A stretch of 64,000 nucleotides of DNA from Halothiobacillus sp. 35-54-62 (GCA_002281295.1 NCFS01000003.1:7577-71576), one strand, 5' to 3'. Shown: positions 58,705 to 63,917, counted from the stretch's first letter. Numbers and translations are program-made. The notes: generated by a model from the sequence alone, not told the origin.

Positions 58705-61041
58705 TTGTTGCGCTATTTTATTAAAAAAAGGTTCGTGCCTTTGTGGCACATTTTGCCGAGCTTCTTGCTTGTTATGGGCTTGGTTTGGGGTATGGCATTG
58801 CCGGCTTTTGCGGCGACATCGCTTGTGCCGGCCGAGCCAAAAGCGCCCGCCGCCCCGGTGTTAACGGCACAAGATTACGCCACCTTATCTAAAATGCTTG
58901 AAAATCCTGAGGCACGCGCGGCGTTGATTCAGCAGCTCAACGCGCTCTCAAAACAAGCCGCAGACGCCAAGGGGGGCGGGGCTGCCTTGCCCGCGTCCTC
59001 AGAGCCGCAAACCATCGCAAATCAGTTGGCGCTTGATACGTCGGGCACATTTAAATGGTTGGTGCAAACCGTGTCGGATACCAGCCGCCGCATTGATCAT
59101 CTAGTTCGCAATCCTTGGTTTGTTTTTAACCCAGAGCAATTTTGGCAAGGCACATGGCGTATAGCAGTGCTGATTTTTCTTGTGTATGCACTCTTGTTGG
59201 GTGCTATTCAGCTCTTGCGACCGATTTCATCGAAAATGGCTGATTGGTCTGAAGGCGCCTCAAAACGGCAGCATTTAATCCGAGCTTTGTTGTCACTGGC
59301 AGCGCTGGGCGCGGTGGGCTTTGGTATTTTGGCGCTTATTTATATGCTGGGTAACGCCTTATCGATTGGGATTAGCGAAAATAATTCGTATGGGTTGTGG
59401 CAGCAATCTTTGTTTTTAAATGCTTTTTTGGTGTTGGAATCGGCGCGATTGCTGTTGCGGATGATTTTATCGCCCTCTTATTCTTGCCTGCGACTTTTTG
59501 CGATTAGCGCGCCGATTGCTCAGTTTTGGACCAATCGAATTACGGTGTTGCTGATAGGCTTGGGCTATGGATTGATGTTTGCCGTGCCGATTGTCCGCCA
59601 AACCATGGGCGAGGATGGGGCGCAGGTGTTGGTTTGGTGTTTAGCGGTATTTGGCTTGGCTCTAAGTTTGGGTTCTATTTTTCAGCAGCGGGTCGTCATC
59701 CGTGCGGCATTGCTGCGCGCAGCTGAACGGCAAGGCTCGGGGTTATTGAGCTGGTTGTTGGTCGTGGTGGCGCATTCTTGGCACATCATGATGATGGGCT
59801 ACATCACCATGGTGTTTTTGGTGGGGCTAACACGCCCCCAAGATGCGTTGCCTTTTATTGCCCAAGCCAGTGGATACACCGTGCTGGCCGTTGCGGCTGG
59901 CTTATTGCTTTCCGCCATTTTAACGCAAATATTTGGCAGCGAGGTGCATCTAAAAGAGCATCATCGGCGCCGTGTGCCGATGTTAGAGCGGCGCTTAAAT
60001 GCTTATTTACCCTGGTTTTTACGCTTGATTCGGCTGCTCATTTTAATGGCCAGCGTGGGGGTGATTCTGCATGTATGGCACATTGTCGATGTCTTCAAAT
60101 GGCTGGGGTCAAAAGCGGGGCAGGGGGTTTTAACCACGGCGATTGATGTTTTATTTTTGGTGATGGCAGCGGCTTTGTTTTGGTTATTTGTCGCCAGCTT
60201 AATTGAGGCCAAGCTCAATAGTGAGCGTGATCACATGCCCTCGGCACGGGTTCAAACCTTGCTTAGTTTGTTTCGCAATGCAGTCGCCACGGCATTGGTT
60301 ACGATTACCGCCATGATGGTGCTCTCAGAGCTCGGTGTGAATATTGGCCCCTTGCTGGCCGGTGCAGGCGTGCTCGGCTTGGCCTTGGGGTTTGGGGCGC
60401 AAAAGCTCGTGCAGGATGTGATTACAGGCGTGTTTATTCAGCTTGAAAATGCGATTAATAAAGGCGATATGGTGAGCGTGGGGGGCATCATGGGTACGGC
60501 TGAGAATTTGTCCATCCGCTCGGTGGGCATTCGAGATGTGTCAGGTACGTATCATATTGTGCCGTTCTCGGCGGTCACCGTGGTATCCAATTACATGCGC
60601 GGGTTTGCTTTTCATAAGGCGGAATACAGCATCGGTTATAGCGAAAACATTGATGCGGCTATCGTTCAGCTTCGGGCGGCGTTTGATGAGCTGATGCAAG
60701 ACTCTGAAATGAAAGGAAAAATATTAGAACCCATCCAAGTGCCCGGCGTCACCGAATTGGGCGCAAGCTCGGTGAATATTCGCGTGCTAATTAAAACAAC
60801 CCCGGGTGACCAATGGGCCGTGGGTCGAGCTTATAACCGGTTGGTTAAAATTTATTTTGATCAATCAGGTATTGAAATTCCGTTCCCACAAAGCACGATT
60901 CACTTTGCAGCCGATGAACCCAATCCGCTCATTGAGGCTAAAAATAAGCAAGCGTTGGCATCTGATGAGGCAAAAAAATCACCGTCTGCGTCGGCTGCGC
61001 CGCGAGATGAGGTGCACGATGAGCAAAACGGGAAGCATTAA
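58705..61041 (+). CDS. MscS-family mechanosensitive channel (large, MscK/MscM-like architecture)
   Basis: The 778-aa ORF has a signal peptide-like N-terminus, a periplasmic segment and about 10 TM segments. The MscS core is LGFGAQKLVQDVITGVFIQLENAINKGDMVSVGG...IRSVGIRDVSGTYHIVPFS. The start codon is TTG and is uncertain. Confidence 0.85.
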   Translation: MLRYFIKKRFVPLWHILPSFLLVMGLVWGMALPAFAATSLVPAEPKAPAAPVLTAQDYATLSKMLENPEARAALIQQLNALSKQAADAKGGGAALPASSEPQTIANQLALDTSGTFKWLVQTVSDTSRRIDHLVRNPWFVFNPEQFWQGTWRIAVLIFLVYALLLGAIQLLRPISSKMADWSEGASKRQHLIRALLSLAALGAVGFGILALIYMLGNALSIGISENNSYGLWQQSLFLNAFLVLESARLLLRMILSPSYSCLRLFAISAPIAQFWTNRITVLLIGLGYGLMFAVPIVRQTMGEDGAQVLVWCLAVFGLALSLGSIFQQRVVIRAALLRAAERQGSGLLSWLLVVVAHSWHIMMMGYITMVFLVGLTRPQDALPFIAQASGYTVLAVAAGLLLSAILTQIFGSEVHLKEHHRRRVPMLERRLNAYLPWFLRLIRLLILMASVGVILHVWHIVDVFKWLGSKAGQGVLTTAIDVLFLVMAAALFWLFVASLIEAKLNSERDHMPSARVQTLLSLFRNAVATALVTITAMMVLSELGVNIGPLLAGAGVLGLALGFGAQKLVQDVITGVFIQLENAINKGDMVSVGGIMGTAENLSIRSVGIRDVSGTYHIVPFSAVTVVSNYMRGFAFHKAEYSIGYSENIDAAIVQLRAAFDELMQDSEMKGKILEPIQVPGVTELGASSVNIRVLIKTTPGDQWAVGRAYNRLVKIYFDQSGIEIPFPQSTIHFAADEPNPLIEAKNKQALASDEAKKSPSASAAPRDEVHDEQNGKH

Positions 61042-61431
61042 GCCCGCCACCGCGTGGCTAGTGGTAATCCACGGCAAAGCGGGCTCAAAACTCACATATA
61101 AAATCAAAGGCGCTGAAAGCAAAAGCATCCCCGTGAGCATGAGCATGCCGGTGCCTGAGATGCGCCGCTCTTGGCGCAGCCAGCCCGCGCGGGCATGCAC
61201 CAGCCACACGGCGCCAATTAATATCAACAATAGCAAGCCGCCCAGCACATGGGCGGCCGTTATTAGGGTGCGGGCAATGCCCGAAGGGGTCCAGGGCAGC
61301 TCAAGTTCCCACTGAAAAGTGAGTAACAAGGGCCACATGGCGAGCCCGGTGAGCAAAACCCAGGCGAATACCCCCATCAATATGGGGGCAAACCAACTGG
61401 GGTAACCCTGCTGTTTGAACTTAGCCAGCAT
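60979..61431 (-). CDS. His-rich 4-TM inner-membrane protein (possible b-type cytochrome / DUF4405-like)
   Basis: The 150-aa ORF has four hydrophobic helices with His residues inside or at helix ends (AAHVLGG, LVHARAG, SHAVAG, IVHLIS) and an Arg-rich C-terminus. The start overlaps the apbE stop by 11 nt. Confidence 0.5.
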   Translation of the reverse strand: MLAKFKQQGYPSWFAPILMGVFAWVLLTGLAMWPLLLTFQWELELPWTPSGIARTLITAAHVLGGLLLLILIGAVWLVHARAGWLRQERRISGTGMLMLTGMLLLSAPLILYVSFEPALPWITTSHAVAGLMLPVLLIVHLISRRSRRRR

Positions 61432-62275
61432 GGCAATCCCGCAGATGACTCGGGCGTGGCATAACCTCAGTGCCCAAATGGCTTGAACTTAATAATTGCC
61501 CGCCCAGTTTTTGCACCCAAGCGGCGGCCTGATCGGGGGCAGATGCGCTGGCAACTTTGGTTAAAGCGTCTGCCCGCCAAGCCTGCGGCGCGATGACCGT
61601 CCAATGGCCCTGGGTTAGGCTTTTTTGTTGCGCCATTAATTGGGCGGGGTAGCGTGTGGGGTCTAACCCCGCCGCCGAGGTCGCACAGGCACCATTGTGT
61701 AGCATGCCTAGGGGCTCGCTACCCAGCGCTTTAGCCAATTGAATCGGCTGCGGTGTACCAAAGCAACGCCAATCGCCCCCCGCATTAACCACCGCTTGGC
61801 TTATCCCTAGCTGGCGTAGCCTTGCGATGGCACGGTCAACCGCAAACCCTTTGGCGATGCCATCTAGGGTGATGAGCACAGCGCGGCGACGGCGAACTTC
61901 TAATCCCCGAAGTTCCAAGTCATCTACTGAGCCGATAGAAATAAAATCCACCCCGTGATCGGGTAATTTGCCCAAAGCAACTAAAGCGCCGCCTACCGTC
62001 GGATTAAAGCGATGGTCACTTGCCGTGGCCATGTTTTTTGCCCAATGCAATACCCGCGCAGTCCATGGGTGCACGGTGATGGGCGTGCGCGCTCGATTAA
62101 GCCGCGATAACTCGCTATCCACCGCGTGAAAACTCATCAACGATTCAATCAGCGCAATATCGCGATAAGCCGCCGCTACGGCCGATTCAATCTGTGCAGC
62201 GGGCAAAGGGGCTGACGCTGTAATCTCAACAAACGTGCCTAAAGCGGGGCGCAGCCGCCGATTGTGCCGAATCAT
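61421..62275 (-). CDS. apbE: FAD:protein FMN transferase (ApbE family), no signal peptide detected
   Basis: The 284-aa ORF begins MIRHNRRLRPALGTFVEITA (the conserved MGT-like start of the ApbE fold) and contains DGIAKGFAVD and NAGGD motifs. The start overlaps the stop of the FMN_bind gene by 4 nt. Confidence 0.82.
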   Translation of the reverse strand: MIRHNRRLRPALGTFVEITASAPLPAAQIESAVAAAYRDIALIESLMSFHAVDSELSRLNRARTPITVHPWTARVLHWAKNMATASDHRFNPTVGGALVALGKLPDHGVDFISIGSVDDLELRGLEVRRRRAVLITLDGIAKGFAVDRAIARLRQLGISQAVVNAGGDWRCFGTPQPIQLAKALGSEPLGMLHNGACATSAAGLDPTRYPAQLMAQQKSLTQGHWTVIAPQAWRADALTKVASASAPDQAAAWVQKLGGQLLSSSHLGTEVMPRPSHLRDCHAG

Positions 62276-62817
62276 TGGGCGGGCGCTGGCGGTAACAGCG
62301 CCACTTGCTGCAAGGCCAGCAAGCGCTTAACGCCATTGGTAATATTGCGGCAGGAAAGACTCGCGCCGCTAATATTTTGAATGTCTTCGCCTAAATCCAA
62401 TTTATCGCGCAAGGTTTTACCTAAAAACTGGCTGCGCCAAGTGGCTTCACGCACTTGATCGCCATAGGTTTCCAAATATTCCATAATTTCAATGCCCAGC
62501 ACATGGCCATCGGGCGAAAGCGCAGCGGCATAACGGATAAATTCGTGCTTGCCGATAACTCGATCCTCGATGTACCAACCGATGAAAGATCCGTTTTTTT
62601 CGACGCGCCACACCGGTTGCTCCGCCCATCGTTGTTTTACATCTGAAAGTGCCTTGATTTTGTCGCGTTCAGCATCGGTAAGGCTCCGCTTCGCATCTAT
62701 AAAAGCGGTTGCCGATGAAAAAAGTGCCCGCTGTGCACCCGCCGTATCAAAATATTCGTTGGCTTGGGCCATCGGCATCACGATGGGCGCCAGCAAAATA
62801 AATGGCGCATAGCGCAT
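62272..62817 (-). CDS. Exported FMN-binding (FMN_bind, NqrC/RnfG-like) domain protein
   Basis: It has a signal peptide (MRYAPFILLAPIVMPMAQA). The C-terminal DIQNISGASLSCRNITNGVKR matches the [ST]GA[ST] flavinylation site motif of ApbE substrates. Confidence 0.7.
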   Translation of the reverse strand: MRYAPFILLAPIVMPMAQANEYFDTAGAQRALFSSATAFIDAKRSLTDAERDKIKALSDVKQRWAEQPVWRVEKNGSFIGWYIEDRVIGKHEFIRYAAALSPDGHVLGIEIMEYLETYGDQVREATWRSQFLGKTLRDKLDLGEDIQNISGASLSCRNITNGVKRLLALQQVALLPPAPAQ

Positions 62818-62827
62818 GATCGACCTC

Positions 62828-63748
62828 CTAAAAGTTGTAGCCGACTTTCAATCGCACTTCATTGCGTTCGTGATCAGCCAAATGCAGGTTGGTTCGGTTG
62901 TTAAAACCTACCTGCTCGCTCGAACCGGCCCACTGATGCGCCCAGGTCAGCGTAAACCACCAATCCTTCGCACCGTAATGAATGCTGGGACCGGCAAAAA
63001 AATCCCAGTGATCAAATTCCCAGCCACCACTGCCGGGCTCGGTTGGGTCAGCTGCGGCATTCAATACTTCCATATCGACCCAGCCTTCCGCCCCAATCGA
63101 CCAATTCGGCGCAAATCGGTAAGAAACCCCCGAACGTAAACGCGGTGCCAACGCACTTTCCACCATGCCGCTGGTATTGTCTTTAGCCGTTTCTGCTTCG
63201 AGTTCGATATTGGTCAGCCATTGCAGCTGGCCATCCATAAAGGGTTTTTGAAAAATTAATTTGGTTTCAATCTCCCAGCCCCGAATACCCGCGCCGGTAA
63301 TGCTATCTACCGTGTCATACGTGAGCTCGCCATACAAAGCGACCCCTAAATCATCCTTATAGGGTGACAGCAGCATTTTTTTGACCTCAACAGAGAAGCC
63401 ACTCAATTTTGTTTGCTTCAACCCGCCTTCAATTTCACCAGGCACGGGGCTGCCGCTGTAGTTATGCCGGTAGCCATTTAAATAAACAGAGGCTGAGAGA
63501 TCGTCCGTTAAGCCGCGCTCATACTCCAGCCGGAAATAATCCGCGCGATAGCTGCCTTGGCGCTTGCCCGTGTGCACTGTGTTCCACAAATACAGCTCGT
63601 TACCCCCTTTGGGCGTTGTTTCAGCGCCTACGGTGTAGCCCAACAGATTTTCATCGGCTTTTGCCGACTCAATCATCGGTGGGGCAAAAACCCCCAAGAT
63701 ACTCAAAGAGGTGCCCCAAAACACCGATGTCCGTGAAAAACTTTGCAT
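62828..63748 (-). CDS. Predicted outer-membrane beta-barrel protein
   Basis: The ATG at 63748 follows AAGGTGA. It has a signal peptide (...LGVFAPPMIESAKA), alternating amphipathic strands rich in Y/G/W, and a C-terminal ...RLKVGYNF (terminal Phe). It lies 10 nt upstream of the FMN_bind gene. Confidence 0.6.
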   Translation of the reverse strand: MQSFSRTSVFWGTSLSILGVFAPPMIESAKADENLLGYTVGAETTPKGGNELYLWNTVHTGKRQGSYRADYFRLEYERGLTDDLSASVYLNGYRHNYSGSPVPGEIEGGLKQTKLSGFSVEVKKMLLSPYKDDLGVALYGELTYDTVDSITGAGIRGWEIETKLIFQKPFMDGQLQWLTNIELEAETAKDNTSGMVESALAPRLRSGVSYRFAPNWSIGAEGWVDMEVLNAAADPTEPGSGGWEFDHWDFFAGPSIHYGAKDWWFTLTWAHQWAGSSEQVGFNNRTNLHLADHERNEVRLKVGYNF

Positions 63749-63917
63749 AGAGATCACCTTTATTAACTTAACACCAACGAGAACCATTCGCATTATTGAT
63801 ATAAATTGTCTTATGTCAACCCCGTTGCCAAATGCGGGCAGGCTTAGGGAAGTTGTGTTTAACTGGGTAAACCGATGCCGGGACATAATCCAAGCATCGG
63901 TATTGAGTAAAAAGATA

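Follow-up and report, generated by a model that had tools for sequence, protein, structure and literature searches.

A conserved four-gene cassette for an outer-membrane barrel, a flavoprotein, an ApbE-family protein and a putative cytochrome b: a candidate module for reductive iron acquisition in Halothiobacillus and other bacteria

Halothiobacillus sp. 35-54-62 carries, in the 64,000-nucleotide (nt) stretch of DNA analysed here (GCA_002281295.1 NCFS01000003.1:7577-71576, the whole of which is called the window below), four consecutive genes on the minus strand at 60979-63748. They encode an outer-membrane protein (OMP) of the DUF6662 family, an exported FMN_bind protein, a protein of the ApbE family and a small membrane protein with four transmembrane helices (the 4-TM protein). 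We consider it somewhat better than an even bet that this cassette is a Fur-repressed module for reductive iron acquisition. The four genes are one co-conserved and probably co-translated unit, and this unit appears, from the DNA upstream of it, to be induced when iron runs short. Insoluble Fe(III) is the iron source on which many bacteria depend, among them sulfur oxidisers without obvious siderophore systems, and the periplasmic reduction of ferric iron is known in outline, with few complete modules. If our reading is true, it provides a function for DUF6662, a Pfam family of unknown function, it defines a family of small membrane proteins, 1,122 clusters at 50% identity, for which Pfam has no dedicated model, and it adds to flavinylation-based extracytosolic electron transfer the first example of an outer-membrane partner devoted to a separate FMN_bind flavoprotein.

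The layout of the cassette was taken from the six-frame list of open reading frames (ORFs) and the sequences of the junctions. The OMP gene (62828-63748, 306 amino acids (aa)) comes first and is followed by the FMN_bind gene (62272-62817, 181 aa), the ApbE-family gene (61421-62275, 284 aa) and the gene of the 4-TM protein (60979-61431, 150 aa), all of them on the minus strand. A gap of 10 nt separates the first two genes, with the OMP stop codon lying within the AGGAGG ribosome-binding site ahead of the FMN_bind ATG; FMN_bind and ApbE overlap by 4 nt, an ATGA being common to both, and ApbE and 4-TM overlap by 11 nt. An earlier prediction made from the window had described this spacing and had seen in it one translationally coupled operon, and the ORF coordinates and junction sequences bear the spacing out. 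The ATG at 63748, with GGTGA 7 nt 5' of it, is taken as the OMP start because a 306-aa homologue aligns over 100% of the length at 89% identity. Base composition is unremarkable over all four genes, the nearest relatives of the cassette are found in Halothiobacillus genomes, and no second copy of any of the four genes is present elsewhere in the 64-kb window.

The cassette is widely conserved. Relatives of DUF6662 were located at 258 loci in a scan of one genome per species, the best 80 of these 258 loci were fetched, and the presence of each gene in the fetched loci was scored by tblastn and ORF clustering. Among the 80 loci, the OMP gene is found in 80, FMN_bind in 77, ApbE in 66 and 4-TM in 64, in identical order; where at least 2.2 kb of sequence lies 3' of the OMP gene, all four occur together in 59 of 67 loci, to which L070 adds one further locus with a divergent four-His protein that escaped the clustering. 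Because this gene order recurs in 59 of 67 loci, the arrangement is not due to chance, and the idea of a single operon is thus upheld, as a unit that is co-conserved and probably co-translated. The hosts include Gamma-, Beta- and Alphaproteobacteria and Sulfuricurvum as well as metagenome-assembled genomes (MAGs) assigned to Opitutaceae, Omnitrophota and Chloroflexota. Apart from these four, no gene family recurs in more than 11 of the fetched loci. Distant members of the 4-TM family likewise stand within the cassette, with the barrel gene divergent in one case. At locus L089 (3537-6423) the barrel gene diverges from FMN_bind-ApbE-4TM over a common intergenic region of 135 nt, and a gene of a VIT1-family iron transporter is located nearby.

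The upstream region of the OMP gene contains a single strong promoter-like site, found by promoter scanning: a -35 hexamer TTGACA (63814-63819, minus strand) and, 16 nt on, a -10 hexamer AATAAT (63792-63797, minus strand), which together (63819-63792) give 11 of 12 matches. The -10 hexamer is overlapped by a Fur-box-like operator, AATAATGCGAATGGTTCTC (63779-63797, minus strand), that matches the consensus GATAATGATAATCATTATC at 13 of 19 positions and ends 30 nt from the OMP ATG. When seven upstream regions of the Halothiobacillus clade are compared (mean identity 55%), the invariant blocks are essentially just the -35 hexamer and the box, with TTGAC and the box core ATAATGCGAA..TT.TC unchanged in all seven. 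In many taxa the barrel gene is preceded by a comparable box at a distance of 15-50 nt. A score of 13 or more out of 19 Fur matches is reached by 28 of 69 cassettes against 21 of 469 control regions, each of them the 100-nt stretch ahead of another gene in these loci (Mann-Whitney p=1e-17); in a comparison matched for GC content, 72% of the cassettes of the AT-rich class reach this level against 11% of the controls. The motif derived from the cassette upstream regions themselves reads nAtAATG(A/C)(T/G)AA(T/c)(C/g)(A/g)TTaTC. Zur and PhoB were also considered as the regulator, and both fit worse than Fur (mean fraction matched 0.53 and 0.55, respectively, against 0.64).

A link to phosphate regulation had been suspected from the pstSCAB genes, which lie divergently upstream of the barrel gene in L081 (5611-9559) and L086 (4619-8564); in the Halothiobacillus sequence under study the homologous region lies past the window's right end. 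The link was dropped because this neighbour is confined to Halothiobacillus, and no enrichment of PhoB boxes is seen upstream of the cassettes.

Among the neighbouring genes, the informative ones concern iron. An exbB-exbD-tonB set follows the cassette directly and co-directionally in Thiomicrorhabdus and in an Omnitrophota MAG, and it is convergent to the cassette in the Halothiobacillaceae clade, while ribBA lies upstream of the cassette in six loci. A Sulfuricurvum MAG (L013, 8001-12798) has no 4-TM gene and instead carries FeoA (Pfam E=4.9e-18) and FeoB after ApbE in the same direction. In a Muproteobacteria MAG (L087), the cassette is part of an island with a second ApbE, FTR1, P19, a NapH-like protein, an FbpA-like protein, Bfd, two bacterioferritins and HemP. 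Metal reduction had been offered in the original prediction as one possible purpose of the module, a suggestion to which the enrichment of Fur-type boxes and the iron-uptake neighbours now lend real support.

The protein encoded by the first gene matches Pfam DUF6662 (PF20367) with E=3.8e-45 and 155 bits against a cut-off of 27, and all 447 of its database relatives carry the same domain; PF13557 (Phenol_MetA_deg) gave no match in it at E<=1. A signal peptide is followed by a strongly conserved mature N-terminus, ADENLLGYTxGAETxPxG, and the chain ends in GYNF. Its AlphaFold2 model, calculated from a 16-sequence alignment that, like those behind the other structure models, was assembled from database matches, is a 12-stranded barrel of about 280 mature residues with a mean predicted local distance difference test score (pLDDT) of 84.7 and a predicted template-modelling score (pTM) of 0.80. 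The best neighbours found by Foldseek in the PDB are FapF (5o65) and the COG4313 channel Pput2725 (4rl8), with template-modelling (TM) scores of 0.6-0.7 and identities of 10-12%; for 4rl8, the values (TM 0.59-0.67, 12% identity) express a likeness at the level of the fold only. The claim that the operon is headed by a beta-barrel is thus well founded. Conserved columns comprise about 10 acidic residues, 5 basic ones and 2 His, which suggests that the interior of the barrel is polar and friendly to cations.

The original prediction went further and proposed that electrons may pass through the periplasmic carrier to something handled at the outer membrane. Such a path across the envelope is unlikely, as a barrel of 12 strands and about 280 residues is too narrow to enclose the 17-kDa flavoprotein, and the same dimensions of the AlphaFold2 model rule out a sheath of the porin-cytochrome kind. 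The nearest folds, FapF and COG4313, are small channels in which an N-terminal segment occludes the lumen. A channel is therefore the preferred interpretation, and electrons are not expected to cross the outer membrane directly: going by the model, the DUF6662 barrel is probably a conduit for a substrate or shuttle and not a wire.

The barrel varies within the genus. Two Halothiobacillus loci (L038, 4622-7415, and L086, 9001-11809) have flanks like those in the window, with pstSCAB upstream and MscS and uvrC downstream, yet their DUF6662 proteins are only 39-40% identical to that of the window; in L038 the other three proteins are 92% (FMN_bind), 79% (ApbE) and 84% (4-TM) identical to their counterparts. 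It seems from these comparisons that the barrel alone was replaced or diversified while the rest of the cassette was kept. Elsewhere, a tandem pair of DUF6662 genes precedes FMN_bind (L049, 8001-9823; L057, 1267-3020), and a Tepidimonas MAG (L035, 1592-2281) holds a truncated DUF6662 match, covering residues 16-241 only and with no FMN_bind, ApbE or 4-TM gene downstream, that is probably a decayed copy.

The second gene encodes, as had been proposed, a small exported FMN_bind protein with an ISGASLS motif. It matches PF04205 (E=6.4e-8), begins with the Sec signal peptide MRYAPFILLAPIVMPMAQA, which ends in AQA, and contains the flavinylation motif D-x-x-N-I-S-G-A-S(153)-L-S-C, in full DIQNISGAS153. 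Its SGAS aligns onto the flavinylated Thr of TGST in RnfG (9eri_G, E=7e-5), the best match among solved structures, and the NCBIfam models nearest to it are those of RnfG and NqrC, well under their cut-offs (29 bits against 102). All of 78 homologues have G151 and either Thr or Ser at position 153, and an AxA-type Sec signal peptide is conserved among them. The protein is best described as a soluble carrier, freed of its signal peptide by cleavage, that is predicted to hold flavin mononucleotide (FMN) covalently through Ser153.

Profile searches, which had been proposed as a check, matched DUF6662, FMN_bind and ApbE, but for the 4-TM protein they gave only a sub-threshold match to DUF4405 (PF14358; E=0.048, 14.6 bits against a cut-off of 26.7). 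Its AlphaFold2 model (pLDDT 89.4) consists of four long helices. Helix 2 carries His61 and His79, and helix 4 carries His126 and His140; these four, together with Gly29 and Tyr112, do not vary among 65 homologues or in two further alignments. According to the positive-inside rule, applied to the distribution of charges in the sequence, both termini and the central loop are cytoplasmic; His61 and His126 thus lie near the periplasmic side and His79 and His140 near the cytoplasmic side. Such a His pair near each membrane face is the layout expected for a transmembrane electron carrier with two b-haems, and the earlier observation that the His residues are placed like haem ligands has accordingly been sharpened to two putative bis-His sites. 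Of 34 family members, 14 match cytochrome b561 (PF01292; best E=3.4e-6) and 14 match DUF4405 (best E=2.3e-4); PF01292 is carried by many database relatives, while the window protein itself has no PF01292 match. Its placement of two His each on helices 2 and 4 would be compatible with the bis-His ligation of two haems in the four-helix bundle of that family. The family was delimited by an exhaustive profile search (E<=1e-10 for the 1,122 clusters), and the best 150 of these clusters range from 114 to 261 aa. Searches of the family profile against the sequences of the PDB returned nothing meaningful. The cytoplasmic loop contains RRISGTG, which was considered as a flavinylation motif and dismissed, as it is not conserved as [ST]GA[ST].

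The third gene had been called an ApbE flavin transferase. Membership of the family stands: the protein matches PF02424 (E=7.8e-32, profile positions 1-258 of 266), and the family profile matches 13 solved ApbE structures, best 1vrm (8.5e-36) and, with residue alignment, 6nxi (3.9e-30). The motifs GIAKG, NAGGD and ADALTK are kept, and among the residues for flavin adenine dinucleotide (FAD), Mg and catalysis, G139-I-A-K-G143, N164-A-G-G-D168, S200 and D236 show little or no variation across 67 homologues. By the residue roles described for the Vibrio cholerae enzyme (PMC12052999), S200 and D236 are the counterparts of Ser241 and Asp285. The activity is less secure, as the catalytic His and a signal peptide are both missing. 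His257 of V. cholerae ApbE is listed as a conserved catalytic residue (PMC12052999); in the alignment to solved ApbEs its position is occupied by Gln212 in the window protein, and in the cassette family by C, P, A, Q, L, K, H or W, with few members having His. PDB entry 6nxj has Gly in place of the His of 6nxi at precisely this position.

No Sec, lipoprotein or Tat signal was found in any of the 67 ApbE homologues (67/67). All of them begin a few residues ahead of RRMRPLLGTFVEI, and we conclude that there is no export signal because, in solved ApbEs, the residues aligned with this N-terminus form the first strand of the mature fold; the ORF in the window leaves no room for a 5' extension. The conserved RRMRP was considered as a Tat signal and ruled out, since that segment is itself the first strand of the mature fold. 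Cytoplasmic ApbE transferases do exist, and the documented ones modify cytoplasmic substrates (PMC12052999). An ApbE without an export signal would have to flavinylate its substrate before export, or it may have another function, next to the cytochrome on its cytoplasmic side; a signal-less, His-less ApbE raises the question of where and how exported proteins receive covalent flavin. In Acinetobacter sp. P8-3-8 (L056, 9439-10677), ApbE and 4-TM form one ORF of 412 aa, the two genes being separate in the Acinetobacter loci L058 and L063. Either the genes are truly fused here or the sequence is in error; in the first case, ApbE would lie on the cytoplasmic side of helix 1.

We propose the following sequence of events, in which the binding of haem and of Fur, the flavinylation and the identity of electron donor, acceptor and channel cargo are what we infer. 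On iron starvation a Fur-type repressor would leave the operator at 63779-63797, free the promoter at 63792-63819 and allow the four genes to be produced together. Spanning the inner membrane, the 4-TM protein would hold each of its two b-haems between helices 2 and 4 and would pass electrons from the cytoplasmic side, from quinol or a cytoplasmic donor, to the periplasmic side, where they would reduce the covalent FMN on Ser153 of the exported FMN_bind protein, the ApbE-family protein having provided that FMN. The reduced flavoprotein would then reduce Fe(III), which might be bound in a small chelate or be reached by a diffusible shuttle, for instance free flavin. The DUF6662 channel, lined with its conserved acidic and His residues, would carry the substrate or the shuttle over the outer membrane, and the resulting Fe(II) would be imported by separate transporters, for example FeoB.

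Several observations weigh against this proposal. The immediate neighbours of the cassette are mostly unrelated housekeeping genes, so that iron-related neighbours are limited to a minority of lineages. GC-rich loci show no Fur-type box, and the Fur label rests on matching to a consensus; another regulator of the Fur family may be responsible. The nearest structural relatives of the barrel transport hydrophobic molecules or unfolded protein, not metal ions. A Foldseek search with the 4-TM model against the PDB found no significant match to a haem protein: the top matches were generic four-helix bundles, and NOX5, cytochrome b6 and HyaC appeared only at E of about 1, so that the cytochrome assignment rests on the sequence pattern and on weak family matches. 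The ApbE-family protein is predicted to be cytoplasmic although its presumed substrate is exported by Sec, and the catalytic His is missing in most members, including the copy in the window. Finally, three loci of Methylophilaceae type (L045, L050 and L059, from Methylotenera and Gammaproteobacteria MAGs) have the barrel, FMN_bind and 4-TM genes and no ApbE, and they retain the flavinylation motif.

There are other ways to read the same cassette. Iron might be released in the periplasm from ferric siderophores that separate TonB-dependent receptors import, with the cytochrome b/FMN_bind pair acting as the reductant, like FoxB, FpvG and PepSY-like proteins, and the DUF6662 barrel recycling the emptied chelator or another small molecule. 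The Fur-type boxes would fit, exbB-exbD-tonB adjoins the cassette in at least three lineages, and PMC8238504 ties PepSY-like flavinylation clusters to TonB receptors and siderophore reduction. Nevertheless, we regard this as rather unlikely: no TonB-dependent receptor or siderophore biosynthesis gene is conserved beside the cassette in the fetched loci, the barrel, present in 80 of 80 loci, is more strictly conserved than any of its partners, a hint that the substrate is handled by the barrel itself, and the feoAB neighbour is equally compatible with any reductive route. Regulation by iron would also be expected of iron-sparing substitutes, and this leads to the idea that the covalent flavoprotein stands in for a periplasmic c-type cytochrome in some pathway of respiration or detoxification whose substrate the barrel admits, with no iron uptake at all. 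Many of the hosts are sulfur oxidisers with a cytochrome-rich periplasm, and flavinylated proteins and cytochromes are used interchangeably according to PMC8238504. Set against this are the two haems that the module itself would require, the metabolic diversity of its hosts (Acinetobacter, Novosphingobium, Shewanella and Methylotenera are unrelated in this respect, and no oxidoreductase partner is conserved) and the nature of the informative neighbours, which are genes of iron uptake (feoAB, tonB, FTR1/P19) and not of respiration; this explanation we find very unlikely.

The peculiarities of ApbE invite a further interpretation, in which this protein, instead of being a transferase, binds FAD in the cytoplasm, docks on the cytochrome b and supplies it with electrons or flavin. 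The module would form a complete chain through the inner membrane, with electrons running from a cytoplasmic flavin over two haems to a periplasmic flavin, like in the NOX/FRE ferric reductases or in Fre-MsrQ, and a different ApbE, one that is exported, would attach the flavin to the FMN_bind protein. Such a docking partner would explain why all 67 homologues are signal-less, why the catalytic His is not conserved, why the ApbE and 4-TM genes overlap by 11 nt and form a single 412-aa ORF in Acinetobacter sp. P8-3-8, and why some cassettes without ApbE keep the flavinylation motif; a second ApbE gene is found within the L087 island. On the other hand, the FAD-binding and Mg/Asp motifs of true transferases are strictly kept, the gene directly upstream encodes a perfect substrate for flavinylation, ApbE transferases that work in the cytoplasm are on record (PMC12052999), the ApbE fold lacks an NAD(P)H site and any known redox role, and the single fusion of P8-3-8 may be a sequencing error, all of which makes the docking role rather improbable. 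A bolder version of our own proposal is that the cassette is a self-contained reductive iron-uptake route over both membranes. Its barrel may be a 12-stranded "mini" TonB-dependent channel in which the conserved N-terminus ADENLLGYTxGAET fills the lumen and is gated by TonB-ExbBD, and its cytoplasmic, His-less ApbE may flavinylate a Sec substrate before export or form the cytoplasmic flavin entry of an ApbE/di-haem/FMN chain. We speculate on this design as a possible one and think it distinctly unlikely to apply in full.

The original prediction had recognised no characterised system of this composition, and none turned up in the literature searched. The closest known kind is that of the flavinylation-associated cytochrome modules (PMC11334425 and PMC8238504), where an ApbE gene, an exported FMN_bind protein with [S/T]GA[S/T] and a small His-rich haem-b membrane protein of the DUF4405, MsrQ-like or PepSY-like kind are likewise clustered, and for which electron delivery to the periplasm, often for iron assimilation, has been proposed. 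DUF4405 binds haem b and clusters with apbE (Huang 2024, PMC11334425), and flavinylation clusters have been tied to iron assimilation (Meheust 2021, PMC8238504). Four invariant His and clustering with apbE are common to the DUF4405 modules and the cassette; the cytochrome of the cassette, however, has four helices instead of six and stays under the DUF4405 threshold. Unlike in the flavinylation-associated modules, the ApbE of the cassette is signal-less and mostly His-less, and a DUF6662 barrel heads the operon; an outer-membrane barrel partner is not mentioned in PMC11334425 or in PMC8238504. No entry for Halothiobacillus or Thiomonas was found in the accessible portion of the supplement of PMC8238504, among whose unclassified clusters the cassette may still be. 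In the literature searched, no paper on "DUF6662" and no description of an iron-regulated cassette of ApbE, FMN-binding and outer-membrane proteins was found.

The combination of ApbE and Fur is known from Caulobacter crescentus, in which CC_3059-CC_3063 (a transporter, DUF2271, DUF4198, ApbE and a flavoprotein) are Fur-regulated and induced 17- to 50-fold by low iron (PMC3751524). DUF2271, a proven ApbE substrate according to PMC8238504, takes the place of FMN_bind there, and the Caulobacter set has neither a DUF6662 barrel nor a 4-TM cytochrome. The FMN_bind protein of the cassette has the fold and flavinylation site of RnfG and NqrC; those proteins are membrane-anchored in large ion pumps, whereas it is soluble and has no Rnf or Nqr genes nearby. 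Like MtrCAB-type conduits, which serve metal reduction, the cassette encodes a barrel together with a periplasmic redox protein and an inner-membrane source of electrons. In Mtr-type conduits, the barrel (MtrB) encloses the periplasmic redox protein (MtrA), for which the predicted 12-stranded barrel of the cassette is too narrow.

With the COG4313 channel Pput2725 (4rl8) and FapF (5o65), the DUF6662 protein shares a 12-stranded barrel of about 280 residues after an N-terminal segment, a segment that folds into the lumen in Pput2725 (PMC4493636). Its roughly 10 conserved acidic residues and two conserved His set it apart from a channel for hydrophobic molecules, and identity is only 10-12%. We know of no COG4313 or FapF member that partners a flavoprotein.

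A few features of the surroundings complete the description of the locus and its relatives. In the window, the 3' end of the 4-TM gene overlaps by 63 nt (60979-61041) the 3' end of a convergent gene for an MscS-type channel (58705-61041, 778 aa), and this convergent overlap recurs in L081 and L086. In Thiomonas bhubaneswarensis (L085, 2741-6255), genes for ZnuA, an ABC transporter ATPase, an ABC-3 permease and a GCHY-1 (FolE2-type) enzyme lie a few kb upstream of the cassette and, taken together, suggest a set for zinc starvation. Just upstream of the barrel gene, and divergent from it, Thiomicrorhabdus and Hydrogenovibrio carry an ORF of 84-86 aa that has no Pfam match (L084, 8540-8794; L088, 8546-8800; L021, 7470-7730).

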